Shown piece by piece: positions 8,593 to 52,545 of a DNA stretch of 64,000 nt. The stretch spans positions 33,090-97,089 of the forward strand of contig JALNZC010000002.1 of assembly GCA_023229525.1 (NCBI GenBank). The letters are read 5' to 3'. How positions within the stretch are numbered: position 1 is the stretch's first letter; every line of letters begins with the position of its first letter. Made by a program: the position numbers and the translations under genes. The stretch comes from Bacteroidales bacterium (GTDB taxonomy: Bacteria; Bacteroidota; Bacteroidia; Bacteroidales; FEN-979). The notes below the pieces were generated by a model. That model did no database searches. It was not told the origin of the DNA and saw nothing but the letters and a program-made list of their open reading frames with translations.

Positions 8593-8650
8593 AAAAACTA
8601 TAAACTCAAAAGTCAAAACTCAAAACTCAAAACTAAAACTTAAAGATTAA
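8593..8650. repeat. Tandem 7-nt repeat array (AAAACTC family).
   Basis: aaaactataaactcaaaagtcaaaactcaaaactcaaaactaaaactt, immediately upstream of the icd start. Confidence 0.8.
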
Positions 8651-8670
8651 AAATTATTTGTTACTTTATT

Positions 8671-8760
8671 TATCCATTCTCTATTATCCAGCATCCATTA
8701 TCCAGCATCTTGTATCCAGCATCTTGCATCCAGTATCTTGTATCCTGCATCTTGCATCTT
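8671..8760. repeat. Tandem 14-nt repeat array (TATCCAGCATCTTG, two 7-mers), about 6.4 copies.
   Basis: tatccattctctat / tatccagcatccat / tatccagcatcttg x2 / catccagtatcttg / tatcctgcatcttg / catctt. The array abuts the stop codon of the 1529-aa gene. Confidence 0.9.
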
Positions 8761-8761
8761 T

Positions 8762-11700
8762 TCATTTCAGTGTTTTGATAAGTGCTCCCCATTGTTTGTC
8801 CACCTCAAAATAATGTTTCAAATAATAATTGCCCAGGAGGAAGTGAGCCTTAACGATTTTCACACCCCGGGCAGCCATGCTGGTGAAGAAACTTTTAATC
8901 ATCCCGGAAGCAATTCCTTTACCCTGCAACGAAGCGGTAACAACAATACCGTCGAGAAACACATTTTCATCTTCCAGGTAACGCCAGGTCAGACCACCAA
9001 TGATCTTGTCTGTTTCATCCGTTACGATATACTGATGGTCGTTATCGGAAATATCTTTGGGATAATTTTCACGGAAAAAGAGCTGATAGAGCTGACCTGT
9101 TTCACGAGGTTCAATCGGTTCGCGCAAGGTATACCGTTTTCCTGATTTATCCTGGATCGGGAAACGTACGACCACGTGCTCTTTTTGAAGTTGGCCCACT
9201 TTCAGGAAATCGATATCACCATTTCCCTGAATACGGGGGAAAACCATCCGGTTGAATACATTTTTATCGTCACTCTCCTTCAGAACTGATTGCAGGTCGG
9301 ATAATTCTATCAATTGTATAGCCAATCCATCGTGATTTTCGTGCATACGGTCAATCAAAAAATCGAATGCTGTTTGAATTTCGGAACTGGATTCCGAAAA
9401 ATAAGTATGACGGTAAAAATAAAAGCGGACAAGTTCAAGGTATTGATTCAGTTTGTAAAGTTCCATCAATTCCCCCATGGTTTGCTCCTTGGCTGCCAAT
9501 GTCGTTAACTGGTTCATTTTGTACCAATCCTGGTACTGATCGATTGCACTGAACAGGGCGACCGGCAGATAATATTTTTTCAATGAAGACTGGATATATT
9601 GATCCAAAAACGTCTGTATATCAGCACGATCAAAACAGGTCATGGATTTTCCGCCAATATCTTGCTGCAGGTTTTTCAGGAAACCGGATGCTTCATCAAT
9701 TCCAAGTGCCTCAATACATGCATCAAAAATCCAGTTTACGTCGAGTTGTTTTCGGCACCAGGGATAAAGTGAAGCGGTTTTGCAATAATAATCCTGGAGC
9801 ATCGGAGACACAAGCGAAAGGGTGTTCTTATATTTTGACCATCCTGCCAGAGAAAGCACCAGGGCGTTTTCACGGAAATCCATTTCGGGAATTGAGACAT
9901 TGGAGGGGGAAATCGAACCTGGAACAATCTGATAACCACTATGATGCCACGCTTTAAAAATAACGGCAAATGACTTGATAAAGATTTTTTTCCAGGCATT
10001 TGCCCTGATATAACCGGAAGATCTGTGAATTTCAGATAATTCCCTGATTTTATCCCAAGCGGTCAGACCTCCGATATACTGGGTTGTAAGGATTCCCAGA
10101 TTAGGCCGGCTGCTTCCAAGCAACGGAGCAACAGCAGGTTCATGGGGGAATCCCGCCAATGAAGCAAGCCAATAAAAAGTATCCGGACTTGGCCTTTTGG
10201 AAGGATTTTCACTCATAACCATATGCAAGTCATAGTGTTTGCCCCCTATTGTATTAATACTCAACCGGTAATGCTTGAATTCCTTGTAAGCCAGCAACCG
10301 TAATATCCAGATTCCCTGATCCGGAATCCCGGCCAGGTCAAATCCCTTTTCATTAAAAGTCAGAACAATACTCTCATGAAGAAAAGTGGTGGTTCGGAAA
10401 ATTTTGGTGATACTTTGTTTTTCAGTATCGGAAATTCCATGTTCAAATACCAGTTTTGATTTCCAGGAGGCAATGGAATAAGGTTTGGATTTACTCTCAA
10501 TTTCTTTCTCGAATACGGAGGCCAGCTGATAAAAATATTTTTCTGCTATTTTTGATAAGTATGGATCTTGTTTGTGTAGGATCCATCGCGATAATTCGGC
10601 ACGCATCGGAACATAGTATTCCATGTGTGTGACGGCAAAATTATAAAGCATCCCGAGCACATCTTCAAATGCGCGCCTGCGTTTTTTTGTTGCCGGCCAT
10701 TTCAGGTTTGTACGGTAATAATAAAGTCGTTGTTTCAGGGCATCGAGCCGGTGTTTACCAAAGTTGCTGGAAGCAATTTCGCGGATCGATTTTTCATTCA
10801 GAAAAGAAAGTCCCGATTCGATAAATGGTGGCATTGCCGCAATGTCTTCAGGACGAGGAACTTTTAGAAGGATCAACCGGTATGCAAGACAACGGATCTC
10901 CTCCTCTGGATGGTATGCAAGCGCTTCAAGCCGATGTCGTAAGGTAGTGGTCAGCCGGGGTTCTGCAGTCCCCAGAATCTTACCCAATTCTTCCAGTGAA
11001 ACGAGAGCTTCCTCAAAATCACGATAATATGTATTGAAAAGTAGATTATTGGCCCGGATTAGCATATTGTCACGAACCGATTTAAATTCGGGGAAAAACG
11101 TTTGTTTTAATTTTCTGAATCCGGATAAGGAAATATTGGAAGAAATAGATCCAAGCGGGATATCCCAGCCCTCTTTGACCGGAAAGAAACTGATCAATTC
11201 AGGATTTCCGGTCCAGATTTTTGGCTGACGGGTAAAAATCCCCAAGTCGATCAGGTCAGAATTTATGAAGTACCTGAGATCTCCTACCTGAAACCAGTTG
11301 CCCTTGTATTTCTTTATCCTGAGTGCCATTCTGTTACGGCGATTCACCAAACGATGGGATTGATAAACAATGTCAGTTTCCAGAATTCCAAGATCGCGAA
11401 ATAACCATTTCGGTATATTTATCGTAAACCCGTCACCAGAAATGCGTACGGTGTTACTCTGGTAAAGCTTTTCAATGATATCTCTGAAATTGGATTCGAT
11501 GACCTTACGATTGAACGATCCTTTGGGGGTAATTTCCCCTTTTTCCCCACTGAAATCGCGGTTGAGGAGGGTAAAATTGATTACCCGTTCATACGTCGCC
11601 ACATCATTGTTTGCCTTCATGACAATCTGATGGAAATATTCTTCCTGGTTTTCACCCGACAGCGCTCTGAACAAAGAATCTTCACGATCAGGGACGATGA

Positions 11701-17373: not shown

Positions 17374-18690
17374 ATGGCTGGAGAGAGTTTCAGGAAAAGT
17401 CCATGGTGGTTTAATGGGGTGAATGTGGTATGGAAAAAAACCTATTTTTTAGGAACAAAGATCAAGCTGGACAAAGATGAAATGATCAAAACCGCCAGGG
17501 CGAAGACGGGCCTGCACGATCTCGGCAAAGAGTTCATGGATGAACCGTTGGAAAGACTTATTACTTCAATCAATAAAGAAGCTAACCTCCATCCGGTCGG
17601 AAGATTTATTACCCGGGAACGGTTTGTGAGTTTATTATGTATCCGTCTTCGCGCTGAATATTTTTTCAGGAAATATCCCCGGATCCTTGAACAAGATCTT
17701 TACCCTGCCTGGATCATCATTGGATTGCAACGTACCGGTACCACAAAGCTTCAACGTCTGCTGGCAGCCGATCCGGATCACCGGGTCATCCCCAGTTGGG
17801 AAGTGATCAACCCCGTTCCCATCAACATGGATTATTTTGAAAATACACATCAACTCCTGGATCATAATCCAGAATCCAGTATCCAGAATCCAACATCCAG
17901 CATCCTTTATCCTGATCCTCTCCGCGTGAAGATCGCCAATACCTCCGTCAATGCTGTGAAATTCATGTCACCCGGTTTCTTTGCCATTCATCCGATCGAT
18001 ACAATGGAGCCCGAAGAAGATATTCTGTTGCTTGACATCAGTTTTTTAAGCACCACTCCGGAAGCTATGATGCAGGTGCCTTCCTATGCATCCTGGCTGG
18101 AACAAACCGATCAATCGCCGGCCTACGCTTATGCCGTGAAACTGCTGAAATTTCTGCAATGGATTAAACCGGCCAGAAGGTGGGTGCTGAAGACACCGCA
18201 CCACCTGGAATTTCCCGATCTGATCGAAAAGTATTTTGGGAAAGTGCACTTCCTTTGGCCTCACCGGAGGATCTATGAGTCGGTTCCTTCATTCCTAAGT
18301 ATGGTCACATACAACCAGATGATTTTCAGTGATCATGTGGATGAGCAACAGGTTGCCCAGCACTGGATCAGGAAGACCGGTTATATGCTACAGAAAGCGC
18401 TCGATTACCGGAACAAGGGAAATAATCAAGAGAAGTTCCTCGATATATACTACAAAAATTTCATAAATGATCCAATCGATACATTGTCAGGAATTTACTC
18501 AATGGATGGCGGGTTAACTCCCGAACTTATTACACGGTTTAATCAGCATGAACGTGATCATCCGCATCGAAAATATGGTGCCCATCAATATTCGCTTGCC
18601 GATTTCGGGTTGACCGAGGCCGATATCGACCAACATACCACTTCCTATCAACAATTTATTTTGCAACACAATGGCTGGGATCAGGCATAA
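17374..18690 (+). CDS. Sulfotransferase family protein.
   Basis: A PAPS 5'-phosphosulfate-binding loop-like GLQRTGTTKLQRLL, with VLKTPHHL downstream. Carries an in-frame heptamer-repeat insertion at 17864-17919. Confidence 0.7.
   Translation: MAGESFRKSPWWFNGVNVVWKKTYFLGTKIKLDKDEMIKTARAKTGLHDLGKEFMDEPLERLITSINKEANLHPVGRFITRERFVSLLCIRLRAEYFFRKYPRILEQDLYPAWIIIGLQRTGTTKLQRLLAADPDHRVIPSWEVINPVPINMDYFENTHQLLDHNPESSIQNPTSSILYPDPLRVKIANTSVNAVKFMSPGFFAIHPIDTMEPEEDILLLDISFLSTTPEAMMQVPSYASWLEQTDQSPAYAYAVKLLKFLQWIKPARRWVLKTPHHLEFPDLIEKYFGKVHFLWPHRRIYESVPSFLSMVTYNQMIFSDHVDEQQVAQHWIRKTGYMLQKALDYRNKGNNQEKFLDIYYKNFINDPIDTLSGIYSMDGGLTPELITRFNQHERDHPHRKYGAHQYSLADFGLTEADIDQHTTSYQQFILQHNGWDQA
17864..17919. repeat. 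In-frame tandem heptamer array (NNNATCC x8) inside the sulfotransferase CDS.
   Basis: ataatcc agaatcc agtatcc agaatcc aacatcc agcatcc tttatcc tgatcct, translated as NPESSIQNPTSSILYPDP. Confidence 0.85.
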
Positions 18691-19774
18691 AAAATATGAT
18701 AATCCTTTCATCGCGACGGTTACGGGGATAACCGATCTTTTCAGAAAATATGAACCGGCGGGAACCCTTAAACACAGCGACAGGCTTGAAGGAAAAACCG
18801 TACTTGTTGACGGATCCAGCTCAGGACTTGGATTTGCTGTTGCCACTGAATGTGCACGCCGGGGCGCCAGGGTGATAATGGCGTGTCGGAGCGGAATACC
18901 AGAGAAAGGGGAGAAGATAAAACAATTGACCGGGAACCCGAAGATACACATGCTTCCCGTCGACTTTTCCGATATCAATTCGATACGTCATCTGGCAGTT
19001 GTCATCCATAATCAGTTTGCCCCGATTGACATTTATATCTGCAATGCAGGCATTGTTCCTAAACAAAGTCGCAAAACGAGTCAAGGACTTGAAGAGATGT
19101 TCATGGTCAATTATTTCTCGAAATTCATCTTTGTTAACCTTCTGTTTGGGAATAGACTTTTGAACAAAAGAACAAAAGAACAATCGAATATTGAAGTCCG
19201 TACGAAGCATAACAGGAATCATGAATCAGCTCTAAATCAACCGAAACCTGCATCCTGTATCCTTTATCCTGCATCCGGTATCCAGCATCCGGTTCCACGA
19301 ATCATCTTCATTGCCTCGGAAAGTCACCGCAATCCGGAAAAGTTTGAATGGGATGCTTTCGGGAAATATCAAGATTACTCTATCGGCAAATCAGTTGAAT
19401 TGTACGGTTATTACAAATTATTACTGACGACCTTTGTGAAAGAACTTTCGCGGCGATTGAATCCGGATCCGGAAATCCGGTGTCCGGTATTTGTATTGTG
19501 TCCCGGACCGGTGAACTCAAATATCGCACGTGAGGCGCCCGGATTTTTTAAACCTCTTTTAAAACTTGTTTTTACTATTTTCTTTAAATCACCGGTCAAA
19601 GCTGCAATACCGGTGATATACCTGGCAGCCTCCCCGGATGTTGAAGGTAAACCATTTGACTACCTTTTCCTGATGAACCGTAAATCGATCGATGAAAAAG
19701 CAGCCGCTCCGGAAAACGGTAAACGTTTATGGGAATTATCCGAAAAACTATTGCAAAGTATTGAAAATGCGTAA
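18671..19774 (+). CDS. Short-chain dehydrogenase/reductase (SDR) family oxidoreductase with a long internal low-complexity insertion.
   Basis: GKTVLVDGSSSGLGFAVA is the TGxxxGxG Rossmann motif, and NAGI is present. Overlaps the sulfotransferase stop by 20 nt. Heptamer insertion at 19249-19290. Confidence 0.75.
   Translation: MAGIRHKKYDNPFIATVTGITDLFRKYEPAGTLKHSDRLEGKTVLVDGSSSGLGFAVATECARRGARVIMACRSGIPEKGEKIKQLTGNPKIHMLPVDFSDINSIRHLAVVIHNQFAPIDIYICNAGIVPKQSRKTSQGLEEMFMVNYFSKFIFVNLLFGNRLLNKRTKEQSNIEVRTKHNRNHESALNQPKPASCILYPASGIQHPVPRIIFIASESHRNPEKFEWDAFGKYQDYSIGKSVELYGYYKLLLTTFVKELSRRLNPDPEIRCPVFVLCPGPVNSNIAREAPGFFKPLLKLVFTIFFKSPVKAAIPVIYLAASPDVEGKPFDYLFLMNRKSIDEKAAAPENGKRLWELSEKLLQSIENA
19249..19290. 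repeat. In-frame tandem heptamer array (NNNATCC x6) inside the SDR CDS.
   Basis: tgcatcc tgtatcc tttatcc tgcatcc ggtatcc agcatcc, translated as ASCILYPASGIQHP. Confidence 0.85.
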
Positions 19775-22435: not shown

Positions 22436-22516
22436 TAAAATTATAAATGCCAGATGATTTAATCAAAAGTTTTTGTAAGTTTGCACCTCAATTTTCTGAC
22501 TTTTGTCGGAAAATAT

Positions 22517-22590: not shown

Positions 22591-22604
22591 CAAAAAAACA
22601 AATT

Positions 22605-22655: not shown

Positions 22656-22745
22656 GTTAAAACAACGGATTGGCTAATTCCCAATCTATCTTCCGCATCC
22701 TATATCTGGCAAGATATATCCAGTCTCCGTCATCTGAAAAATTCT

Positions 22746-22753: not shown

Positions 22754-22773
22754 CATCGCATTAAAAGGTTAAT

Positions 22774-23717: not shown

Positions 23718-23753
23718 GATTTGAAAATTTGAGGATTTGAAAATTTGAAAATG
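23718..23753. repeat. Tandem 8-nt repeat array (RATTTGAR family) between trxB and purL.
   Basis: gatttgaa aatttgag gatttgaa aatttgaa aatg. Confidence 0.8.
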
Positions 23754-23814: not shown

Positions 23815-26800
23815 ATGATAACTTTTTTCAAAACCCCCACCAATTTCTATGCAGTCGAAAGCCTTGACAAACTGTCTGGTGAAGATTTGAAGAAACTCTC
23901 ATGGTTATTTGGCAGTGCGGACTATGTGACCGAACCGGTTGTAGCGGGACATTTCATCGGTCCCCGCCCTGAAATGATCACCCCGTGGAGTACCAATGCA
24001 GTTGAGATTACTCAAAATATGGGAATCACAGACATTACGCGAATAGAAGAATTTTCCCAATTCCCCTCGTCCCTCGTCCCTCCTCCTTCGTCCTTCGTCC
24101 CTACATTTGATCCGATGCTTCAGCATATTTATGAAGGTTTGGATCAGCATATTTTCAAGGTTCACCGGGAACCGGATTCCATCCGGTACATTGAAGATAT
24201 TTCAGCTTATTCCGACCAGGAAGGTCTGGCGCTCAGCGCGGAAGAGATCGGTTACCTGCTTCAAATCAGTCACAAACTTGGCCGCCCGCTTACCGATAGC
24301 GAAGTTTTTGGATTTTCACAGGTCAATTCAGAACATTGCCGGCACAAAATTTTTAACGGCACTTTCATCATTGATCGTAGGGAGATGCCGGAATCTCTTT
24401 TTGAACTGATCAAAAAAACAGCCAGGGAGCATCCCAACTTCCTGGTTTCTGCTTATCATGACAATGTCGCCTTTATCCTCGGACCTGAGATTGAACAATT
24501 TGCCCCTGCTATCCAGAACAAGGCAGATTTTTTCGTCATCAAGGACATCCAGACCGTCATTTCATTGAAGGCCGAAACACATAATTTCCCGACAACGGTT
24601 GAACCATTTAATGGAGCCGCGACTGGTTCCGGTGGTGAGATCCGCGACCGGATGGCGGGAGGAAAGGGGAGCATTCCCCTTGCAGGCACTGCCGTCTACA
24701 TGACTTCTTACCCCCGGTTTGATGGCGGACGAAGCTGGGAGAAGCAGATCGATGCCCGTTCGTGGCTCTATAAAACCCCGGAAGAGATACTGATAAAAGC
24801 TTCCAATGGCGCCAGCGATTTCGGGAATAAGTTCGGGCAACCATTAATTTGCGGTTCCCTATTGACTTTCGAACATGAAGAAAACGGAAAGACTTTCGGT
24901 TATGATAAGGTCATCATGCTGGCGGGTGGTATCGGTTATGCCCGGAAATCAGATAGCCTGAAAGGTATACCGGAACCGGGGCAACGTATCGTTGTTCTGG
25001 GTGGCGACAATTATCGCATCGGTATGGGTGGAGGCGCAGTCTCCTCAGTTGCAACCGGTGAATTTGGAAACGCGATAGAGCTGAATGCCGTACAAAGATC
25101 GAATCCCGAAATGCAGAAACGGGTCTTCAACGCGATCAGGGCCTTGACAGAAATGGATACAAACCCAATTATTTCAATCCATGATCATGGCGCCGGAGGA
25201 CATCTCAATTCGCTGTCCGAACTGGTTGAATCAACTGGTGGTACGGTCTATATTGATGCTTTACCACTTGGTGATCCGACGTTATCGGATAAAGAGATCA
25301 TCAGCAACGAATCGCAGGAACGGATTGGCCTTATTGTTGGGGAAAATGATGTGGAGATGCTCCATGAAATTGCCGAACGCGAAAGGGCTCCAATATATGA
25401 GGTTGGAATAACAACAGGAGACCATCAACTGGTTTTTCTTAACAGAAAAAATGAAAGCAAGCCAATTGACCTGAATTTGGAAGATTTCTTCGGTAAACCT
25501 CCCAGAACCCAGATCCGGGATTCCTCCTATGCAACCCGTTTTTCACAACTTACCTATAAACCCTCCCGGTTGCATGAATATCTTGAGGAAGTTTTACAAT
25601 TGGAAGCGGTTGCCTGTAAGGACTGGTTGACCAATAAAGTGGACCGTGCCGTTTCTGGAAAAATTGCAAAACAGCAAACCTGCGGAGCGATTCAATTACC
25701 CCTTAACAATCTGGGAGTTGTAGCGCTAGATTACACAGGTAGGAAGGGAATAGCCACATCGCTCGGGCATGCACCGATCGCGGGTTTGGTAGATCCCTCT
25801 GCCGGTTCCAGGTTATCCATTGCTGAAGCGCTGACCAACATCATCTGGGCGCCACTTACTTATGGGTTGAAAGGCGTGTCCCTGTCTGCCAACTGGATGT
25901 GGCCTTGCAAAAATGCCGGAGAAGATGCGCGCCTGTATGCTGCCGTTAAGGCGGTAAGTGATTTTGCAATTGAATTGGGAATTAATATCCCAACTGGTAA
26001 GGATTCTTTATCAATGACACAAAAATATCCGGGGGGCAAGATGGTATTCTCTCCCGGAACTGTGGTCATTTCAGCCGTTGCAGAAGTATCTGATGTAAAA
26101 AGGGTTGTCAGCCCTGTATTGATCGAAGAACCTGGTTCATACCTTATTTATATAGATTTTTCAAGGGGAATGCTGAAGCTTGGAGGAAGTAGTTTTGCTC
26201 AGGTTGTCAACGCAATCGGAAATGAAGTTCCGTCAGTGAACGACAGTGGATATTTTATCAGGGCTTTCGACGTCATTCAGCAGTTGATCATGGATCAACT
26301 GATTCTCGCCGGTCATGATATTTCAGCGGGTGGACTTATCACAACACTACTTGAAATGACTTTTCCAAACGAAGGTTCCGGAATTAATGCCGACCTGACC
26401 CAACTGAAAGAAAGGGATATTATTAAATTGCTTTTCAATGAAAATCCCGGGATCATCATTCAGGTAAAAGATATCGATACGATAAAGAAATATCTGGCAA
26501 AAGCACGGGTAGATGGTATCCACATTGGATCGGTGAGTAATGAAAGAAATATAACCATCAGAAATAGTACGGATAGTTATTCCTTCGACATTGAATCGTT
26601 ACGTGATATTTGGTATCGGACATCCTATCTGCTCGACCGGAAACAATGTGGTGACAGCCTTGCATTGAAGCGATACACCAATTACAAAAACCAACCGTTG
26701 AAATTCCGGTTTAAGGAAAATTTTAAAGGGACATTTGCATCCTATGGGATTGCTTCCAAACGCCGTATCCCATCCGGAATCAAGGCCGCTATAATCCGCG

Positions 26801-33920: not shown

Positions 33921-34385
33921 ATGATACATCAACTTAACTTACCGGAATTTAAACCACGCATACGTGACGATAGCGGAAAAAAGGAAATCTTTGACCGGTT
34001 CCGGAAAAAATTTATCCGTCTCACACCCGAAGAATGGGTTCGGCAGCATTTCCTTGATTTTATGGTTACCCGTCTGAAATTCCCGGCTTCACTGATCGTG
34101 GTGGAAGCATCATTGATCTTTAACGGGATGACCAAACGGTTTGATATCCTGGCATACAACACAAGTGGCAATCCCTGCCTGGTGGTTGAATGCAAAGCGC
34201 CTTCCAGAGAAATTACACAGGATGTTTTCGACCAGGTGGCTATATATAATATGACCCTTGCGGTGAATTATCTTGTTGTTACCAATGGGTTGACTCACTA
34301 TTGCTGTCGGATTGACCATCAGGCCCGAGCGTACACTTTTCTGAAAGAGATTCCCACGTTTGAAATCGTGAATCGTACATCGTAA
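33921..34385 (+). CDS. Stand-alone type I restriction enzyme HsdR N-terminal-like domain protein with a PD-(D/E)xK fold.
   Basis: FDILAY...PCLVVECKAP gives D...E-x-K spacing. Length is 154 aa. No M or S partner gene is adjacent. Confidence 0.6.
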   Translation: MIHQLNLPEFKPRIRDDSGKKEIFDRFRKKFIRLTPEEWVRQHFLDFMVTRLKFPASLIVVEASLIFNGMTKRFDILAYNTSGNPCLVVECKAPSREITQDVFDQVAIYNMTLAVNYLVVTNGLTHYCCRIDHQARAYTFLKEIPTFEIVNRTS

Positions 34386-34391
34386 ATCAAA
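34364..34391. repeat. Short tandem heptamer array (AATCGTA family) spanning the stop codon of the HsdR_N-like gene.
   Basis: aatcgtg aatcgta catcgta aatcaaa. Confidence 0.6.
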
Positions 34392-37098: not shown

Positions 37099-37148
37099 AA
37101 GAAAATCCTGCGAAAGAAATTTGTATTCAATCGTAAATCGTAAATAGT

Positions 37149-39389: not shown

Positions 39390-39403
39390 ATCAAAGTTCA
39401 AAA

Positions 39404-39438
39404 CAGGATGCAGGATGCAAGATACAGGATACAGGATA
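39404..39438. repeat. Tandem heptamer array (CAGGATR family), 5 units, directly upstream of the adenosyltransferase start.
   Basis: caggatg caggatg caagata caggata caggata. Confidence 0.85.
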
Positions 39439-39512
39439 TCGATTATTGTTTATGATTTTCATTATAAATGAATGATAATGAGATTTATGTGTGAGAACAC
39501 AAAGATAAGAAT

Positions 39513-39546
39513 AAATCTAAAATCGTAAATCTAAAATCGTAAATTT
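39513..39546. repeat. Tandem 14-nt repeat (AAATCTAAAATCGT), about 2.4 copies.
   Basis: aaatctaaaatcgt aaatctaaaatcgt aaatttgt. Shares the AATCGTA core with arrays at 34364 and 37129. Confidence 0.75.
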
Positions 39547-40115: not shown

Positions 40116-40181
40116 TTCAGGTATTCATGCAATTGAACGGGAGATTGTTTGGGAACCTCCGATACTATTCAACAGAGTGGT

Positions 40182-40799: not shown

Positions 40800-40847
40800 G
40801 AGATTAGGTTGTTGGTTTGAATTATCGGGTTAGTTGTAATATGAAAA

Positions 40848-41684: not shown

Positions 41685-41687
41685 AAT

Positions 41688-41778
41688 GAAAACTTAAAAC
41701 TTAAAGTGTAAAGCTCAAAACTTTATTTCAAAAGTCAAAACAATTGATTTATCCTTAAATCCTCAAATCTTCAAATTT
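41688..41778. repeat. Degenerate 7-nt (AAAACTT/AAAGTCA) and 8-nt (ATCYTYAA) tandem repeats between the GNAT and alkylation-repair genes.
   Basis: gaaaact taaaact taaagtg taaagct caaaact ... atccttaa atcctcaa atcttcaa. Confidence 0.6.
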
Positions 41779-42487: not shown

Positions 42488-42499
42488 AGGCTGGGTGTT

Positions 42500-42576
42500 G
42501 GATGCAGGATGCAGGATGCAGGATACAGGATACAGGATACAGGATACAGGATACAGGATACAGGATGCAGGATGCT
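42500..42576. repeat. Tandem heptamer array, 11 units (GGATGCA x3, GGATACA x6, GGATGCA, GGATGCT), between alaS and the alkylation-repair gene.
   Basis: Counted directly: 77 nt of uninterrupted 7-nt periodicity. Confidence 0.95.
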
Positions 42577-42655
42577 GGGGACAAGATGTAAAATAATTAA
42601 GAGCTATCAAATTTAGTAAATCTAAAACAAACAGATATAGTATACAACACGATTG

Positions 42656-45357
42656 TTATTCCGCAAGGTACTCCCGTGCTTTTTCCAATGCCTTAGGTAT
42701 TCCTGCCGGATTTTTTCCACCGGCCGTGGCAATGTGGGGTTGTCCGCCGCCACCGCCCTGGATCTCTTTAGCCAATTCCCGGATGATTTTCCCGGCATGC
42801 AGATCATGTTCCTTTACTAAATTATCAGCAAGCATAACGGTAAGCGAAGCTTTGCCTCCGTTTTCGGAAGCAAACACAAGAAATAAATTGGGGATTGCGC
42901 GATTCAGCTCATGGGCCAGGTTCTTAACAGTTTCGGCATCAAGATCAACAAGGACAGCAAGGAAGTTGATTCCATTAATGGATTGCACCTGTGTTATATA
43001 CTCTTCTTTGAGTTGGTGCAGCTTTAATTTCCCCAATTCAGCCACCTGGCGTCTCAACTCCTGGTTTTCTTCCTGTAGATTCTTAACGCCTTTTATAAGG
43101 TCTTTCGGATTTTTCAGCAGTTCGCCCACTTCGTCCAGAAGTGTTTCTTTCGCATTCCAGTATTTTTCTGCTTTTTCGGCAGTGATTGCTTCAATCCTTC
43201 GGATTCCAGCAGCGATGGCGCCTTCGGATATGATTTTAAACATTCCGATTTGCCCGGTCGCTGCAACGTGGGTTCCTCCGCAAAGTTCAACGGAGTAATC
43301 AGGATCAAAAACGATAACGCGAACAAGGTCACCGTATTTCTCACCAAACAGTGCCATGGCTCCCATTTCACGCGCTTTCTCAATGGGAATTGCCCGTTCT
43401 TCCTTCAGGATGATATTCTCACGGATTTTGGCATTCACCAGCGTTTCCACTTTCGTGATTTCTTCCTTTGTCATCCTGGCGAAATGAGTGAAATCGAACC
43501 GGAGATGCTGATCATCGACAAGCGATCCTTTTTGTTCGACATGGGTACCCAGAATATTTCTCAGAGCAGCATGTAACAAGTGGGTCGCCGAATGGTTGTT
43601 GGCTGTATTTGTACGTTTTACAGTATCAACCCTGGCATCAACCGGCAAATTCGGATTGCTGAAAATGGAGGGTGTAATATGTATGAAAAGTTCATTTTCT
43701 TTGAGGGTATCCAATACTTCGAGTTTTTCTTCCCCCGATACCAGCCAACCCTTGTCGCCTACCTGACCACCGATTCCGCATAAAAAGGGGTTTTATCCAA
43801 AACGATGTGATAATGCTCCCGGCCTTTGGTTGTAACCATGCGGAATTTGGTGATTCTGGAGTTAGTTTCCAACATATCGTATCCTTTAAATTCTGACATT
43901 CCGGCATCGCTTACTAAAACAGTCCAATCGGATGCATCCAATGTAGCATCCTGCCGCGAACGGGCTTTTTGTTCCTCCAATCCTTTTTTAAACCCTTCCA
44001 TATCGACCGTCCACCCGAATTCCCGGGCCATGAGTTGCGTTAGATCGATGGGAAACCCGAACGTATCATAAAGTTCAAAGGCAAAAGCACCCGAAATAGC
44101 TGGTGAGCTGGTGAACTGGTGAGTTGGTGAGCCAATGAGTTGTTCAGTTTTGAAATTTGAATCGAGGTTTTGAATTTTGAGTTTTGAGTTTTGAACTGAC
44201 TCAACATAATTATTAAACCGTTGAATCCCTGCGGAAAGTGTTCTCATGAAAGCGGCTTCTTCTTCACGGACCACATTGTTTATCAACTTTTGTTGTGCAA
44301 TAAGTTCGGGAAAAAACGGACCCATTTGGGCGACCAGAACGGGAAGCAACCTGTAAAGGAATGGTTCTTTGATCCCGAGAAACGTATATCCATAGCGAAC
44401 TGCCCGCCGGAGGATGCGACGGATCACATAACCTGCTTTCACGTTCGATGGCAATTGTCCGTCGGCAATTGCAAAAGCTACGGCACGCAAGTGATCGGCT
44501 ATGACCCGCATAGCGATATCGGCTTTGGGATCTTTGCTGTATTCTATCCCCGCCTTCAACGCAATAGCTTGTATAATGGGTTGGAATACATCGGTATCGT
44601 AATTTGACTTTTTACCCTGCAACACCATACACAGGCGTTCGAATCCCATACCGGTATCAACATGTTTGTCCGGCAGTGGAACTAATTTTCCGTCCGACTG
44701 ACGGTTAAATTCGATGAATACAAGGTTCCATATTTCGATAACAAACGGGTTCCCGGTATTGACAAGTGAGGCGCCCGGGATTTTATTACGGTCAGCATCT
44801 TCGCGGATATCAGCATGAATTTCCGAACAAGGGCCGCAGGGACCCGTATCACCCATCTCCCAGAAATTATCTTTTTTTGATCCGAACAGGATTTGTTCCT
44901 CTGGAATCATGGCTTTCCAGTACCCAAAGGCATCATCATCCCGTGACAATCCTTCGGTTTCATCCCCTTTAAAAACAGTAACATACAATCGTGTTTTATC
45001 AATTTTCAGGACTTCTGTCAGCAGTTCCCATCCCCAGGAAATGGCTTCTTTTTTAAAATAATCTCCAAATGACCAATTACCAAGCATCTCGAACATGGTA
45101 TGGTGATAAGTGTCATGGCCTACTTCCTCCAGATCGTTGTGTTTTCCCGACACCCGAAGACATTTCTGAGTATCGGCAATCCGCTTGAATTTAGCTTCCC
45201 GGTTACCAAGGAAAATATCCTTGAATTGGTTCATGCCGGCATTGGTGAACATCAAAGTAGGATCGTTTTTTATCACCATGGGGGCCGAGGCGACAATTTC
45301 ATGTTGCTTCGACCTGAAAAATTCGAGAAAGGTCTGTCGGATACTTGTAGAATCCAT
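42656..45357 (-). CDS. alaS: Alanine--tRNA ligase, split into two ORFs (43759-45357 and 42656-43714) by an apparent 1-nt deletion near 43770.
   Basis: N-terminal part: FF..K.H....S..V...[15 protein letters not shown]. The upstream ORF ends ...[10 protein letters not shown]. Shifting one base restores the canonical [13 protein letters not shown] and runs into the downstream ORF, which has [12 protein letters not shown] and a C-terminal DHHA1-like GGGG region. Confidence 0.9.
44099..44196. repeat. In-frame 8-nt (GYTGGTGA) and 7/8-nt (TTTTGAR) tandem repeat arrays inside alaS.
   Basis: gctggtga gctggtga actggtga gttggtga gccaatga ... ttttgaattttgagttttgagttttgaac. Sense translation is [33 protein letters not shown]. 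Confidence 0.85.
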
Positions 45358-45438
45358 CTAATTATAAGATTAACAATTCGTTAACAATCTTTAACATTTT
45401 TTAAAAACCCCAAACGGCTGCAAAGTTAATTATTTACT

Positions 45439-45446
45439 TAATTTTG
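45439..45446 (+). promoter_or_regulatory. Bacteroidota -7 box (TAnnTTTG).
   Basis: TAATTTTG lies 47 nt upstream of the ATG at 45493. Confidence 0.35.
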
Positions 45447-45492
45447 TAGACGTTAGCTTGCCTGTTTTGATTAATTCTTTATTTAGCTATTG

Positions 45493-46467: not shown

Positions 46468-46481
46468 CGGAACTTCGGTTG

Positions 46482-46817
46482 ATGCTAAAAACAAACAAGA
46501 AAATAGAAAAAATCTACTATTCCATTGGGGAAGTGGCTGAATTATTTGAGGTAAACACGTCGCTCATCCGATTTTGGGAGAAAGAATTTGATATTTTACA
46601 GCCACAAAAAAACAAAAAGGGAAACCGGTTATTTACCCGGCAGGATTTAAATAACCTTCGTATCATTTATCATCTGGTGAAGGAGAGGGGGTATACGTTG
46701 CAGGGAGCAAAAGAAAAGCTTCGACAGAATAAAGAGGATGTTGGGAAACAGGTGGAGATCATCGATTCTCTTAATCAGATCAAGGGCTTCCTGCTTGATT
46801 TGAAAGAACAGATGTAA
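46482..46817 (+). CDS. MerR family transcriptional regulator.
   Basis: YSIGEVAELFEVNTSLIRFWEKEF is a MerR-type helix-turn-helix. Length is about 111 aa. Confidence 0.8.
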   Translation: MLKTNKKIEKIYYSIGEVAELFEVNTSLIRFWEKEFDILQPQKNKKGNRLFTRQDLNNLRIIYHLVKERGYTLQGAKEKLRQNKEDVGKQVEIIDSLNQIKGFLLDLKEQM

Positions 46818-47170
46818 TGCGGGAAACATCGATGCCGGGTTCAGCTTCATTTTTTGAAAATGTTTATGATGTCGTTCGTCAAATCCCGGCCGGCCGGGTC
46901 ACATCGTATGGAGCAATTGCAGAATATCTGGGGTTGCGGGGGTCAGCCAGGATGGTTGGCTGGGCGATGAATGCAGCCCAGACACCGGACAACGATGTTC
47001 CTGCACACCGGGTAGTGAACCGAAACGGGATGCTTACCGGAAAACATCATTTCGGTGGTCCGTTGATAATGCAGCAACTTCTTGAGAGTGAGAATATAGA
47101 GATCATTGATGACCAGGTGGTACGGTTCGGTGAATTGTTTTGGGATCCGGCTAAGGAGTTGACAAGTTAA
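46817..47170 (+). CDS. MGMT-family DNA-binding protein lacking the acceptor cysteine (alkyltransferase-like, ATL).
   Basis: IPAGRVTSYGAIA and VPAHRVVNRNG, where PAHR replaces the catalytic PCHR. The start ATG overlaps the MerR stop (TAATG). Confidence 0.75.
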   Translation: MRETSMPGSASFFENVYDVVRQIPAGRVTSYGAIAEYLGLRGSARMVGWAMNAAQTPDNDVPAHRVVNRNGMLTGKHHFGGPLIMQQLLESENIEIIDDQVVRFGELFWDPAKELTS

Positions 47171-47209
47171 AAGTGAAAAGTGATAATGGATTTATTAAGT
47201 GAATTGCAC

Positions 47210-47265
47210 AACATCCTATATCCTGTATCGTGTATCCTGTATCCCGTATCCTGTATCCAGCGTCC
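47210..47265. repeat. Tandem heptamer array (NGTATCC family), 8 units, between the ATL gene and mrp.
   Basis: aacatcc tatatcc tgtatcg tgtatcc tgtatcc cgtatcc tgtatcc agcgtcc. Confidence 0.9.
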
Positions 47266-47271
47266 TTTTTT

Positions 47272-47279
47272 TAATTTTG
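47272..47279 (+). promoter_or_regulatory. Bacteroidota -7 box (TAnnTTTG).
   Basis: TAATTTTG lies 14 nt upstream of the ATG at 47293, immediately after the heptamer array. Confidence 0.4.
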
Positions 47280-47292
47280 TAGATGACATAAT

Positions 47293-48384
47293 ATGAATAT
47301 AGAAATAAATATCTCCCAAATAACTGAAGCGTTACGACATGTTGATGATCCCGATCTCCATCAAGACCTGGTAACGCTCAAAATGATCGAAAATATTCAG
47401 ATCGAGAGTCCGGTCGTCCGTTTTGATGTTGTACTCACAACACCGGCTTGCCCGCTGAAAAACCAGATCCGACAAACCTGTATCGATGCTATCCATCAAT
47501 ATGTACATCCTGAGGTGGAAGTAGTTATAAACATGACTTCCCGGGTCACTTCAAGACGAAAAGAGACTGATTTGATGCTGAAAGATGTAAAGAATATTAT
47601 CGCCGTTGGATCCGGCAAAGGGGGTGTCGGAAAATCGACTGTGGCTGTAAATCTCGCAGTTGCCCTGTCTCAAACGGGTGCCCGCGTAGGCCTCATAGAT
47701 GCTGATATTTACGGACCTTCTGTCCCGATGATGTTCGGGATGGTCAATGAGCGCCCAAAGGGTTTCGATAAGGATGGAAAAACATTTGTCTATCCGTTTG
47801 AAAGGTTCGGAATTAAAATATTATCCATAGGATTTTTTGTCGATCAATCGAAAGCCCTGATATGGCGAGGTCCGATGGCTTCGATGGCTCTGCGTCAGCT
47901 TTTTACGGATGCAGAATGGGGTACACTCGATTACATGATCGTTGACCTTCCACCCGGAACCGGCGATATTCCACTGACCCTGGTCCAGGATTTCCCACTC
48001 ACAGGCGCGATCATTGTGAGTACTCCGCAAGAAGTCGCTATTGCTGACGTGCGAAAAGCGGCCGATATGTTCCGTAATGATAAAATCCACATCCCGGTGC
48101 TCGGATTGGTCGAAAATATGTCATACTTTTCGCCACCTGATCAACCTGAGAAAAAGTATTATATCTTTGGTATGGGAGGATGCCGTAAATTTGCTGCAGA
48201 ATTGAATATTCCTTTGCTGGGGCAAATACCGATCGTTGCTGCCATTGCCGAATCAGGTGATGCCGGAAATCCGGTTGCGACCGATCCGGAATCCCCGATA
48301 ACCGCTACTTTTAATGAGTTGGCCGAAAAAGTAGCACAACAGATAGCGATAAGCAATACAATAAGGGAATCATTTGAAAATTGA
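47293..48384 (+). CDS. apbC: Mrp/NBP35-family iron-sulfur cluster carrier ATPase.
   Basis: N-terminal DUF59-like V.DP.L..DLV.L. The deviant Walker A is GSGKGGVGKST. Length is 363 aa. Confidence 0.9.
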   Translation: MNIEINISQITEALRHVDDPDLHQDLVTLKMIENIQIESPVVRFDVVLTTPACPLKNQIRQTCIDAIHQYVHPEVEVVINMTSRVTSRRKETDLMLKDVKNIIAVGSGKGGVGKSTVAVNLAVALSQTGARVGLIDADIYGPSVPMMFGMVNERPKGFDKDGKTFVYPFERFGIKILSIGFFVDQSKALIWRGPMASMALRQLFTDAEWGTLDYMIVDLPPGTGDIPLTLVQDFPLTGAIIVSTPQEVAIADVRKAADMFRNDKIHIPVLGLVENMSYFSPPDQPEKKYYIFGMGGCRKFAAELNIPLLGQIPIVAAIAESGDAGNPVATDPESPITATFNELAEKVAQQIAISNTIRESFEN

Positions 48385-48681: not shown

Positions 48682-50370
48682 TCACGAAAGATACCTGGCT
48701 ACAATAGGCATGCGACGCCCCATACCGAATGCTTTAGGAGAAACCCTGAGGATGGGAGGTGTCTGATAACGTTTGTATTCGGAAGTGTTGACCAGTTTCA
48801 GAACCTTTCTTACTGTTGATGCATCAAATCCCTCCCGGATCAGTTCTTCAGGTCCAGTGCGTTGTTCTATGTATTTAAAAAGAATCTGATCAAGGATATC
48901 ATAACCAGGTAAAGAATCAGAATCTTTCTGGCCAGGCCGCAATTCTGCCGAAGGAGGCTTAAGGATAGAATTTTCCGGGATGACCAACTGGTTTGAATTG
49001 ATGAGCCTTGCCAGTTCGTAAACCTGGGTTTTGTATACATCACCAAGTACCGACAACCCGCCGCTCATATCCCCATACAATGTCCCGTACCCCACCGCAG
49101 CTTCACTTTTATTGGAAGTATTAAGCAGGATGTACCCGAATTTATTTGATAATGCCATCAGGATAACAGCCCGGAGACGAGCTTGAATATTTTCTTCTGT
49201 CAGGTTAAATGGCAGATTGCCGAATTGTGGTTCCAGGGTGTGCTTCAGCGCTTTAAAGCCTTCCTCAATGGGGATAATTTCGTATGGAACACCCAGATTT
49301 TCGGCTAAAGTGCGTGCATCTGTAATGCTGTGATCCGAAGAAAATTGCGAAGGAAGGAGAATCGCCCTGACATTTTCGGGACCAAGTGCTTCCGCTGCAA
49401 GGACAAGTGTTACTGCTGAATCGATTCCTCCCGAAAGACCAATTATCGCTTGAGCAAATCCCATCTTATTGAAATAATCACGAATACCAAGGACCAGGGC
49501 AGAATGGATCATCTGTATACTGGATGCTGGATACTGGATTTTTCTCTCTTCCAGAGGTGAAAAATCTGGGAATGATCTTGATGTATGATGCAGGATGCAG
49601 GATTGATTTTCTGGATTAAAATCGATGATCTGAAGATCTTCTTCAAAGCGTTTGAGCCCGGCAATTACGTCTCCGTTCGGAGCGATAACCATGGAATCGC
49701 CGTCGAAAATGAGCTCAGTCTGGCCACCAACCTGGTTAACATATATCACAGGAAGATGGTAGGTAATGGCATTTCTGGAAAGTACTTCACGACGGATAGC
49801 CGGTTGATCGTAATTAAAGGGTGAAGCTGAAATATTGATGACCAGATCGGGATTCAAGGAGATCAGCTCATCCATGGGATTGCGTACGTATAGTGGGTCA
49901 TCGGCTACATTCCAAAGATCTTCACAGATAGTTACTGCAAACCGGCAGCCGAGGTGTTCTATCAGAGAGTAGGGGAGCCGGTTTGGCTCAAAATAACGAT
50001 ATTCGTCAAAAACATCGTAATTGGGCAAAAGGGTCTTATTTGTCATTGCCTTTATGGCGCCGTCGGCAAGGAAATAAGCGGTATTATAGAGCGGTTTACC
50101 ACGCGGAGCAGGATTAATCGAAGGAGCGCCGACTACGGCAGCAATTCCCTGACACGCCAATGCAATGGTTTCAACTGCCTGCCTGCACTGACGGATAAAA
50201 TCATCAAATTCAAGAAAATCGCGAGGCGGATAACCGCAAACTGAAAGTTCAGCAAACACAACGACATCGGCTTGCAGAATTTTGGCTTGGTTAATTGCCG
50301 AGATGATCCGGGCTGTATTACTCGCGAAATCACCTACATGATAATTCAGTTGTGCCAGTGCAATTTTCAT
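48682..50370 (-). CDS. nadE: Glutamine-dependent NAD+ synthase.
   Basis: N-terminal CN-hydrolase (MKIALAQLN...VVFAELSVCGYP...ICEDLW) and C-terminal NAD synthetase with GLSGGIDSAV (SGGxDS PP-loop). Heptamer insertions lie in the interdomain linker. Confidence 0.95.
   Translation of the reverse strand: MKIALAQLNYHVGDFASNTARIISAINQAKILQADVVVFAELSVCGYPPRDFLEFDDFIRQCRQAVETIALACQGIAAVVGAPSINPAPRGKPLYNTAYFLADGAIKAMTNKTLLPNYDVFDEYRYFEPNRLPYSLIEHLGCRFAVTICEDLWNVADDPLYVRNPMDELISLNPDLVINISASPFNYDQPAIRREVLSRNAITYHLPVIYVNQVGGQTELIFDGDSMVIAPNGDVIAGLKRFEEDLQIIDFNPENQSCILHHTSRSFPDFSPLEERKIQYPASSIQMIHSALVLGIRDYFNKMGFAQAIIGLSGGIDSAVTLVLAAEALGPENVRAILLPSQFSSDHSITDARTLAENLGVPYEIIPIEEGFKALKHTLEPQFGNLPFNLTEENIQARLRAVILMALSNKFGYILLNTSNKSEAAVGYGTLYGDMSGGLSVLGDVYKTQVYELARLINSNQLVIPENSILKPPSAELRPGQKDSDSLPGYDILDQILFKYIEQRTGPEELIREGFDASTVRKVLKLVNTSEYKRYQTPPILRVSPKAFGMGRRMPIVARYLS
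49513..49607. repeat. Two in-frame heptamer arrays (CTGGATR x4 and GATGCAG x4) inside the nadE linker.
   Basis: ctgtata ctggatg ctggata ctggatt (49513-49540) and gatgtat gatgcag gatgcag gattgat (49580-49607). Sense translation is ...CILHHTS...QYPASSIQ... Confidence 0.8.
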
Positions 50371-51221: not shown

Positions 51222-51306
51222 GGAATGGGAGGAAGGAATGAAGGAATGAAGGAATGAAGAATTGAGTGATTGAGTGATTGAGTGATTGTGTGATTGTGTG
51301 ATTGAA
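51222..51306. repeat. Two abutting tandem 8-nt arrays (GGAATGAA x3, then TGATTGAG/TGATTGTG x6).
   Basis: ggaatgaa ggaatgaa ggaatgaa gaattgag tgattgag tgattgag tgattgtg tgattgtg tgattgaa. Confidence 0.9.
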
Positions 51307-51317
51307 TAAGTAAGGTA

Positions 51318-52388
51318 GTGAGCAAGCGAGAAGCATATTTTGAATCAGCTAATTTTTTCTTGGGTTTATATTTCGAAAGGGTGAGGATTTTCAGATTTTT
51401 CTGGATTTTATCGGGAATTTGGCTGGTAACGGACATTGGATGTGTTTCTCACAACGATCGTATTAGCATAGATGTATCAAAAGTTGATGTTCCTGCTGTA
51501 AAAATTCACAGGTATGATTTGGATTTATTTAAAGTCAGACCGGGCTTTCTCCGGCAGGACCTGGAAAAATTAAAACCCGGATACCGGTTTTTTCTTGACA
51601 CTGACCTAAACGATTCATCGAAAATTCAGCAGATAAAAATATACCTTGAAACTCCCCGTAATATTGACTTTCATGCAGCAGTACAAGCCCGATTTAAGGA
51701 TGTTACTTTCTTGGAAACTTCGATCAGAGAGGCTTTCCGTCATGTAAAATTTTATTATCCTGGTGTAAAGATCCCCAGGGTATACACTTATATTTCGGGG
51801 GGCGATTATGATTTTCCGGTCCAGCTTGCCGACAGTGTACTGTTGATTGGCCTGGATAATTATCTCGGTAAAGATTTTAAAGCTTTTATGGTGGATGGTA
51901 TTCCGCTTTACCGTATCGCGAGGATGACTCCGGATTATATCCTTCCCCAGGTTTTGAAAGTGATGCAGGCCAACCTGGTTCCAGAACCATTGCCAGGAAA
52001 TAATTTGCTCGAACAAATGATCGAGGGCGGCAGACGGCTTTATTTCGTCCAGGCCATGATTCCTCAGACTGATCCGCGTTTTATTATAGGATATAGCGTT
52101 GAACAGTACGAATGGATAATCAATAATGAGGCCCCTGTATGGAGCGCTATCATCGAAAACCAAATCCTCTATTCTACCGATGGCAGGATCATCCGCTCAT
52201 TCATGGCCGATGGCCCTTTTACACCGGAGTTTTCCAAAGAGGCACCCTCCCGTCTCGGCGAATTTCTCGGGTGGCAAATCGTAAAGAACTATATGGAAAA
52301 TGAGCCACAAGTTACGCTACCACAGATGATGGCTGAAAAAGATTTCCAGAAAATTCTCACCCTTTCGAAGTATAAGCCTAAGAAATAG
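51318..52388 (+). CDS. gldB: Gliding-motility lipoprotein GldB-like protein. The start is uncertain: GTG 51318, or GTG 51381, which gives the lipoprotein-like leader MRIFRFFWILSGIWLVTDIGC.
   Basis: Overall resemblance to GldB (..LGWQIVKNYME...SKYKPKK C-terminus) and position next to nadE, both from recollection of Bacteroidota synteny. No search was run. Confidence 0.55.
   Translation: MSKREAYFESANFFLGLYFERVRIFRFFWILSGIWLVTDIGCVSHNDRISIDVSKVDVPAVKIHRYDLDLFKVRPGFLRQDLEKLKPGYRFFLDTDLNDSSKIQQIKIYLETPRNIDFHAAVQARFKDVTFLETSIREAFRHVKFYYPGVKIPRVYTYISGGDYDFPVQLADSVLLIGLDNYLGKDFKAFMVDGIPLYRIARMTPDYILPQVLKVMQANLVPEPLPGNNLLEQMIEGGRRLYFVQAMIPQTDPRFIIGYSVEQYEWIINNEAPVWSAIIENQILYSTDGRIIRSFMADGPFTPEFSKEAPSRLGEFLGWQIVKNYMENEPQVTLPQMMAEKDFQKILTLSKYKPKK
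51356..51392. repeat. Left arm of a 37-nt inverted repeat bracketing the gldB-like ORF.
   Basis: tttcttgggtttatatttcgaaagggtgaggattttc matches the reverse complement of 52349-52385 at 33 of 37 positions. Confidence 0.85.
52349..52385. repeat. Right arm of the 37-nt inverted repeat. It encodes the last 12 codons of the gldB-like ORF.
   Basis: gaaaattctcaccctttcgaagtataagcctaagaaa. All 4 mismatches to the left arm are G.U-compatible on the plus-strand RNA. Confidence 0.85.
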
Positions 52389-52425
52389 AGTGTGGTCAAG
52401 TAGACAAGTCAACCAGTTCATCCTG

Positions 52426-52545
52426 CCACCTGCCCACTTGTCCACCTGCCCACTTGTCCACCTGCCCACTTGTCCACCTGCCCACTTGTCCACCTGCCCA
52501 CTTGTCCACCTGCCCACTTGTCCACCTGCCCACTTGTCCACTTGT
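52426..52545. repeat. Perfect tandem 16-nt repeat (CCACCTGCCCACTTGT), 7 full copies plus a half copy.
   Basis: Counted directly from 52426. Lies between the gldB-like stop (52388) and the comM start (52614). Confidence 0.95.

Follow-up and report, generated by a model that had tools for sequence, protein, structure and literature searches.

Tandem arrays in the window

The window, a stretch of 64,000 nucleotides (nt) from a Bacteroidales contig (JALNZC010000002.1, positions 33,090 to 97,089), encodes AlaRS, NadE, PurL and other housekeeping enzymes, as well as the gliding-motility lipoprotein GldB, and carries short head-to-tail repeats with units of 7 or 8 nt between and within these genes. 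An earlier note, made from the letters alone, had listed at least 17 such loci and proposed an undescribed class of element. The arrays were searched for with Tandem Repeats Finder (TRF), and 30 dinucleotide-preserving shuffles of the window served as the null. In the window, 39 arrays were detected against 12.0 +/- 3.5 in the shuffles. Arrays with periods of 7, 8, 14, 16 or 21 nt numbered 25 against 3.7, and those of any period with a score of at least 50 numbered 15 against 0.27. The units at these periods are contiguous, and reading by eye of 8540-8800, 17820-17940, 19200-19330, 42460-42660 and 52380-52620 showed head-to-tail units with variants interleaved. Every locus listed in the earlier note was recovered, although the one placed at 44147 lies at 44167 by TRF and the one at 37129 is weak (2.4 copies). 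Three further arrays, at 41751-41776, 47160-47183 and 49587-49603, had not been listed. The arrays are collected in Table 1.

A metagenome contig of 8.1 kb (L081; JGI 3300037067) is 99.975% identical to positions 39931-48027 of the window, and the nine arrays in the shared stretch have the same copy number in both. Provided that L081 was assembled independently, this excludes an artefact of a single assembly, which the earlier note had named as a possibility.

The recurrence of unit families was borne out. Among the 17 units of 7 nt, 24 pairs lay no more than one mismatch apart when rotation and strand flip were allowed for, where 2.9 would be expected, and the largest cluster is family A (ATCCNGY/GGATRCA), with nine arrays (P = 0.0005). 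In the window, family A reads ATCC on the sense strand in seven of eight arrays, the exception being that at 8670, as had been noted before; across the clade of uncultured Bacteroidales to which the window belongs, where the family is widespread, the ratio of ATCC-sense to opposite is 21:8, a trend rather than a rule. Perfect runs are short (median 2.6 units), most arrays being degenerate, and 58% of the differences between adjacent units are transitions, which equals the genome-wide substitution spectrum.

The arrays are concentrated between genes. Fourteen of the 25 are mostly intergenic, where intergenic DNA makes up 6.2% of the window (P = 3e-11), and arrays occupy 17% of that DNA, or 21% of it between 8 and 53 kb. 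Likewise, 56% of 226 arrays in the clade fall in the 7.4% of sequence outside long open reading frames (ORFs). Tandem, divergent and convergent spacers all hold them. Stop codons are abutted or included at 8760/8762, 34363-34388, 41751-41776 and 47160-47183, start codons are directly preceded at 39403 and 41689, and promoter-like TAnnTTTG boxes are neighboured or supplied at 8628, 39540 and 47272. With 69 matches in the window against 57 +/- 7, enrichment of this Bacteroidetes -7 motif is not significant, and the sense strand of the intergenic arrays is nearly symmetric in base composition, with no strong asymmetry. The scan of seven array-bearing spacers for inverted repeats gave only weak matches of 74-83%, none of them significant. 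One weak two-unit inverted partial copy (52392-52409) was considered as a hairpin or terminator and rejected, as its fold is no better than those of shuffles (z = -0.8).

Inside genes, the arrays of purL, the sulfotransferase gene and the dehydrogenase gene fall at interruptions of Pfam domain matches, and nine Bacteroidota AlaRS proteins could not be aligned over the segment that holds the two alaS arrays. This AlaRS loop measures 19-67 residues across 60 clade sequences, and different 7-nt units often give it peptides with a seven-residue period (IQHPASS, SRVTRHA, EYRISNI and RIPDPAS). The NadE array occupies the linker between the CN_hydrolase and NAD_synthase domains, which in two relatives holds 8-nt arrays, CAATAATT x5 in L001 and CACATCAT x12.8 in L004. 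In proteins, then, arrays survive only in permissive loops, stop-free and with a net length divisible by three. The earlier note had ascribed the preserved frame to sets of three units; this is only loosely true, since the copy numbers are not integers and the frame is preserved by the survival of only those net insertions that are divisible by three. A test for selection of stop-free units proved circular, since stop-free arrays are absorbed into ORF calls. In-gene and intergenic arrays do not differ in unit identity or perfect run; the sole difference is that arrays of at least 60 nt are scarcer inside genes (6 of 75, against 28 of 126 intergenic).

The array at 42500, over which a long ORF was called, is probably a 5'-leader and not coding, because the gene as called on L081 has its start downstream of the array. 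The unit family of 41751..41776 (ATCCTCAA) also occurs in the related loci L146 and L093, and the GGACAAGT-type family of 52426..52541 is found at other loci in L004.

Table 1. Tandem arrays of the window and their surroundings; a sign with a gene start gives the strand of that gene
Position	Strand	Unit and copies	Location
8591..8656		Family B, AAAACTC-type, 7 nt, about 7-9 units	Intergenic, 14 nt upstream of icd start (8576, minus); contains TAGTTTTG, a match to the Bacteroidetes -7 promoter motif on the icd strand
8670..8760		Family A, 13 interleaved TATCCAG/CATCTTG units, 14-nt double unit	Ends 1 nt from stop of 1529-residue AMP-binding/GNAT gene (8762-13351, minus); GGAT on sense strand
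17866..17905	+	Family A, AATCCAG x5.7	Sulfotransferase gene, residues 165-178; within Pfam match spanning about 57 residues more than the profile
19247..19293	+	Family A, ATCCTGY x about 6.7	Short-chain dehydrogenase gene, residues 193-208; just past the break-off of the Pfam adh_short match (residue 158, profile position 119 of 195)
23718..23752	+	8-nt units GATTTGAA/AATTTGAG, 16-nt double unit x1.9	Intergenic; 8 nt past stop of thioredoxin-reductase-like gene, 62 nt before purL
24064..24102	+	CCCTCGT x5.6	purL (FGAR amidotransferase), residues 84-96; after end of FGAR-AT_N match (residue 83), before linker domain (residue 129)
34363..34388	+	Family C, AAATCGT x3.7	Over last codons and stop (34385) of HSDR_N_2 gene
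37129..37145		Family C, AATCGTA x2.4, weak	Between convergent genes
39403..39438	-	Family A, ACAGGAT x5.1 (sense ATCCTGT)	Directly upstream of cobalamin adenosyltransferase start
39512..39544	+	Family C-like double unit TAAATCTAAAATCG x2.4	22 nt upstream of DUF7935 gene; last unit overlaps TAAATTTG, a match to the -7 promoter motif
41689..41723		Family B, AAAACTT x5	4 nt upstream of GNAT gene start (41684, minus)
41751..41776		ATCCTCAA x3.2, 8-nt unit	Over stop of DNA-alkylation-repair gene
42500..42573	-	Family A, GGATRCA x10.6, 97% matches (sense TGYATCC)	Between alaS stop (42656) and alkylation-repair gene start as called on L081 (~42445)
44098..44132	-	AGCTGGTG x4.4, 8-nt unit	alaS, within 46-residue variable loop
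44167..44195	-	Family B, TTTTGAA x4 (TTCAAAA in alaS frame)	alaS, same loop as 44098..44132
47160..47183	+	TGAAAAG x3.4	Spans stop codon (47168-47170) of MGMT-like gene
47213..47266	+	Family A, ATCCTGT x about 7	26 nt before mrp/apbC start; ends 5 nt ahead of TAATTTTG, a -7-type motif
49513..49603	-	Family A, CTGGATA x3.9 + GATGCAG x2.4, encoding ...IQYPASSIQ	NadE linker
51230..51305	+	GAAGGAAT x3.5, then directly ATTGWGTG x5.6 (8-nt units)	Divergent spacer upstream of gldB
52426..52541	+	CCACCTGCCCACTTGT x7.2, perfect; 16-nt double unit of two 8-mers	Between gldB and comM

Several features were seen alongside the arrays. The alaS gene (42656-45357, minus strand) lacks 1 nt of a CCC run (~43770) that is complete in the otherwise identical L081, and the deletion breaks it into two ORFs, 43759-45357 and 42656-43714. 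L081 encodes an intact AlaRS of 900 residues; rather than a real pseudogene, the window most likely has a sequencing or assembly error at this homopolymer. A triple repeat with a period of 10 nt, AGATTGTTAA-like on the alaS strand, lies at 45370-45404, 13-47 nt upstream of the alaS start and between the divergent promoters of alaS and an M23-peptidase gene. It recurs at 9954-9988 in L001 and L002 and at 9962-9989 in L004 and, unlike the 7/8-nt arrays, keeps both its sequence and its position throughout the clade. About 20 period-10 TRF matches in the metagenome loci are probably this same repeat, which may be an operator or leader element for alaS.

The 1529-residue ORF at 8762-13351 (minus strand) has an N-terminal AMP-binding domain (acyl-CoA ligase-like), about 800 unannotated residues and a C-terminal GNAT domain. 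The only RNA gene found in the window by ARAGORN and Rfam is tRNA-Pro(GGG) (22517-22591), and an 89-residue ORF called across it (22503-22772) is probably spurious. The comM-like Mg-chelatase gene ends at profile position 158 of 207 (53669), where a large serine recombinase gene on the opposite strand (53641-55173) overlaps its end. Downstream of the recombinase lie a type IIG-like methylase/HSDR_N protein (55303-57813), then an unannotated ORF of 615 residues, and also an 836-residue protein bearing two HATPase domains, and an N6/N4 DNA methylase. The region 52614-63574 (GC 0.32-0.37) looks like an integrated defence island inserted in comM, and no 7/8-nt arrays were found in it.

Turnover among relatives

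The best relatives of the AlaRS and M23 peptidase of the window were found in metagenome-assembled genomes (MAGs) of uncultured Bacteroidales and in freshwater, peat and digester metagenome contigs, the nearest other species having 79% AlaRS identity. Three MAG loci (L001, L002 and L004) and 80 metagenome loci with conserved synteny were compared with the window, and the closest MAG loci and the 80 metagenome loci bear arrays of the same kind. Over 0.89 Mb of sequence from the clade, 102 arrays had a period of 7 nt, 59 of 8 nt, 14 of 14 nt and three of 9 nt, and none had a period of 5-6 nt. The density of 7/8-type arrays was 2.1-3.9 per 10 kb in the clade against 0.49 in 1.28 Mb of other Bacteroidota, a four- to eightfold lower density, and the array periods of the latter are mostly multiples of three.

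The units themselves vary widely, with 57 distinct canonical 7-mers among 104 arrays, and each genome has its favourites: ATCCNGY in the window, ATTCCTC and GGAATTA in L002, GGACAAGT 16-mers in L004, and TGTTACCC and AGTAATGG in L088/L091 (3 loci). Orthologous spacers hold other unit families or no array. The spacer between the MGMT-like gene and mrp, for example, carries ATCCTGT in the window, ATTCCTC in L002, and a 16-mer together with GTTTAGG and CTTAAAA in L004.

Insertions and deletions (indels) were surveyed in seven pairs of clade genomes that are 88-97% identical, and those in an array or within 8 nt of one were counted as array-associated. The survey showed that 94 of 140 indels (67%) were array-associated, with arrays covering 2.8% of the sequence (P ~1e-82), or at most ~5.6% under the either-genome test used. 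Of the array indels of at least 7 nt, 11 of 32 were exact multiples of the local unit (P = 0.004). A whole array can also be lost or gained: a composite (AGTAATGR)n-(YGTYACCC)n array is present at 4173-4300 in L088 and at 4979-5090 in L091, and is missing from L153 (~5128), which is 92-93% identical and retains a single AGTAATGG at a TAATGG microhomology. Thus, the alignment of orthologous loci that the earlier note had proposed revealed differences both in presence and in copy number, seen in sister genomes of the clade, and its suggestion of slippage-prone tracts is supported by the clustering of indels and their unit multiples.

Look-ups of exact proteins and a large protein search, aimed at other strains of the window's species, returned only the same strain (L081, L162, L163 and L154). 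Within ten clusters of AlaRS proteins at 90% identity, the loop has the same length in all full-length members, which differ there by point substitutions only, and the two length differences in those clusters are both at the protein N-terminus. The arrays are stable above ~97% identity and variable at 92%. Overall, they gain and lose length over the times at which species diverge, are then eroded by ordinary mutation, and do not behave as population-level switches.

Same-unit arrays paired in inverted orientation were seen in relatives, at 866-970 in L088, 17963-18036 in L002, and 6757-6911 and 8035-8154 in L004. The L088 pair folds into a hairpin of -41.8 kcal/mol (z = -6.3), and in L004 two arrays of 120-155 nt from one 16-mer family flank mrp in opposite orientation and could mediate an inversion.

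Origin of the arrays

In summary, the arrays are moderately likely to be slippage-prone simple repeats of heptamers and octamers, similar to the short tandemly repeated repetitive (STRR) sequences of cyanobacteria; they would form a trait of this whole clade of uncultured Bacteroidales and be filtered to permissive sites by selection. Tandem duplications with a step of 7-8 nt would arise and then grow or shrink by strand slippage or unequal exchange, point mutation would erode them to interleaved variants, and purifying selection would clear them except in spacers, leaders, gene ends, flexible loops and inter-domain linkers. With expansion, erosion and purifying selection at work, the arrays would thus be mainly fast-turnover filler that incidentally supplies linker peptides, stop codons and promoter-like boxes, and hairpins in relatives. 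This explanation builds on the clade-specific excess, the 7/8-nt spectrum, the positional filtering, the turnover at orthologous sites, the indel hot spots and the normal mutation spectrum observed above; slippage as the generating step, and the cause of the step size of 7-8 nt, are inferred.

Several observations weigh against this explanation. Purely local slippage predicts unrelated units at different loci, yet family A recurs at eight loci of the window, and arrays of the same genome at least 500 nt apart have a family in common in 23% of cases against 7% between genomes (odds ratio 4, P ~1e-19). Owing to this genome-specific sharing, either sequence-dependent expansion or some copying between loci must be added to slippage. 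The 21:8 sense-strand bias of family A is not explained by avoidance of stop codons, since the unit is open on both strands, and slippage offers no explanation for the sharp preference for 7 and 8 nt. Copy-number change was shown in sister species only, because the search for the window's own species returned a single strain, and the long near-perfect arrays at 42500 and 52426 could be functional or hypervariable.

The same sharing of families within genomes would be expected to follow from active copying, in which genome-specific 7/8-nt families spread between loci when replication restart or break repair switches template to an ectopic array, or with the help of a dedicated enzyme or template, and slippage only modulates their length afterwards. 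That each genome has favourite units of its own, that the same permissive sites are refilled by different families and that two families stand side by side at two L088 loci point in this direction too. However, the side-by-side families of L088 are not simple copies, because their relative orientations differ; the diversity of canonical 7-mers speaks against a single template; and related families are separated by ordinary point changes, so that divergence in situ is possible. Neither an enzyme, a template RNA nor a mobile-element gene is linked to the arrays of the window, whose sole recombinase lies in the comM island. Active copying is therefore regarded as conceivable but doubtful. The arrays might instead be binding sites, in DNA or in mRNA leaders and trailers, for a single-strand-binding protein of the cold-shock/S1 type or a transcription factor, which would tune the neighbouring genes at the level of transcription, translation or termination. 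Many arrays do lie a few nucleotides from start codons, stop codons or TAnnTTTG -7-type motifs, family A has its sense bias, inverted array pairs follow genes in relatives and form stable hairpins in L088, and a regulatory role has likewise been proposed for the TAACTGA repeats (PMC4679880). A fixed binding site, which the earlier note had put forward, nevertheless fits poorly, because orthologous spacers and loops bear unrelated units or no array and no unit-specific site is conserved. The units are very diverse, they also occur within the coding loops of AlaRS and NadE, the intergenic arrays are nearly symmetric in sense-strand composition, the -7 motif lacks significant enrichment, and the sole candidate hairpin of the window folds no better than chance, all of which makes arrays of binding sites an unlikely explanation.

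The indel hot spots between close relatives, the unit lengths that are not multiples of three and the two long near-perfect intergenic arrays, at 42500 (10.6 units, 97%) and 52426 (7.2 x 16 nt, 100%), would suit contingency loci, at which a change in copy number switches or tunes genes within populations (phase variation). This part of the earlier proposal did not hold up well: the in-gene arrays sit in the essential AlaRS, NadE and PurL, where a change by one unit would be lethal, the median perfect run is short, the AlaRS loop keeps its length in all ten clusters examined, nine arrays have unchanged copy numbers in L081, a second contig of this strain, and the flanking genes are not surface, restriction-modification or virulence genes. 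Phase variation is accordingly judged very improbable. Footprints of a transposon with a target-site duplication of 7-8 bp, adding one unit at a preferred target with each cycle of insertion and excision, would be expected to leave a fixed 7/8-nt step and recurrent families. Yet no transposase lies beside any array, the indels of relatives often comprise two to five units at once (16, 24, 29 and 34 nt), the alternating 14- and 16-nt double units are typical of two-unit slippage, and the diversity of units goes far beyond one target specificity, so that this origin is hardly credible.

The favoured explanation, slippage-prone repeats filtered by selection, leaves the general puzzle of heptamer repeats in bacteria: why 7 nt, why only in some lineages, and why few units per genome. 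The freshwater, peat and digester Bacteroidales clade is a dense and well-sampled case, with two step sizes (7 and 8 nt) and measurable turnover, and the refilling of the same AlaRS and NadE loops with different units makes selection plainly visible. If the families do propagate actively, spacers and even the loops of essential enzymes would be refilled repeatedly with the current unit of the genome, and the clade would be a tractable natural system for how and why such repeats arise. In practice, the arrays break short-read assemblies, stretch ORF calls over spacers (as at 42500) and make low-complexity peptide inserts in housekeeping proteins, three effects for which annotators should be prepared.

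Comparison with known repeats

Heptamer repeats in bacteria have been known since 1990. The arrays are of this known kind, that is, heptamer long simple sequence repeats (SSRs) similar to STRR, and do not form the undescribed class that had been supposed, as tandem heptanucleotide repeats have already been described as STRR, as the repeats of Xanthomonas and Nostoc, as long SSRs and as TAACTGA repeats. Tandem units, their excess, their placement in spacers and loops, the recurring families and the variation between relatives were all found here. Two other exclusions of the earlier note stood. CRISPR arrays (clustered regularly interspaced short palindromic repeats) consist of direct repeats of 23-50 nt with unique spacers, usually with cas genes; the units here are contiguous, 7-8 nt long and without spacers, and no cas domains appeared in the Pfam scans. 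Since no significant inverted repeats flank the window arrays or lie within them, they also do not resemble repetitive extragenic palindromic sequences or bacterial interspersed mosaic elements (REP/BIME), or miniature inverted-repeat transposable elements (MITEs).

In Haemophilus, Neisseria and Helicobacter, phase-variable contingency SSRs consist of 1-7-nt units in long perfect tracts, which lie within or ahead of surface or restriction-modification genes and show polymorphism within populations. The arrays share with them short tandem units whose copy number changes by slippage, but they are degenerate, lie in housekeeping genes and spacers, and are stable in length within species-level clusters.

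As in STRR, head-to-tail 7-nt units without spacers occur at many loci, mostly intergenic, in a few dominant families; the differences are the Bacteroidales host, the share of 8-nt arrays (about one third) and the many arrays in coding loops of essential enzymes. The GC content of 42% and the heptamers had first suggested cyanobacterial STRR. The STRR units are CCCCAGT, TTGGTCA and CAACAGT, and none of the three occurs in tandem in the window. Together with the presence of GldB and the Bacteroidales origin of the best protein matches, this rules out cyanobacterial STRR in the strict sense, that is, the heptanucleotide repeats of heterocystous cyanobacteria such as Calothrix PCC 7601 and Anabaena/Nostoc, as they are cited in PMC4692102.

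In many bacteria the commonest long SSRs are those of heptamers; a proposed cause is slippage of the polymerase, with ~7 nt suggested as the segment that it holds (PMC4679880; PMC4692102). According to the summaries in these two papers, Mrazek, Guo and Shah (2007) found that tandem repeats of 5-11 nt are over-represented in scattered genomes with a peak at 7 nt, and that long SSRs whose unit is not a multiple of three are kept out of coding sequence. The ten richest genomes, as given in PMC4679880, are four Burkholderia, two cyanobacteria, three Actinobacteria and Xanthomonas, with no Bacteroidota in that list. The peak at 7 nt is the same here; a second peak at 8 nt and the sharing of families within genomes set the present arrays apart.

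TAACTGA and other heptamers have been described in Beggiatoaceae, cyanobacteria and five Bacteroidetes, including Paludibacter, a member of the Bacteroidales (MacGregor 2015, PMC4679880). Those repeats resemble the present arrays in lying between genes near start codons, over stop codons and at the periphery of proteins, and in that the same spacer of related strains can lack the array. In that study, assemblies break inside arrays, and in Gramella, Aequorivita and Elizabethkingia one spacer holds several heptamer families (PMC4679880). In the window, TAACTGA occurs seven times singly and never as a tandem dimer. Membership in the TAACTGA network was rejected, as the unit is never in tandem; the present arrays also show no consistent forward orientation before start codons, none of their units dominates, and their density is far above the 2-14 sets reported per Bacteroidetes genome (PMC4679880).

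The GGGAATC/GGGGAYT repeats of Xanthomonas and Nostoc occupy the same intergenic sites in related species, with extensive variation in length and sequence (Rehm et al. 2015, PMC4692102). Similarly to the inverted pairs of L088 and L002, occasional inverted pairs of these repeats can form hairpins; however, they are G-rich and form G-quadruplexes, whereas the units here are not G-tracts. Relative to these known systems, the present arrays are new in their host clade, density and strong 8-nt component, in the repeated refilling of loops of essential enzymes and in the quantified genome-specific sharing of families.

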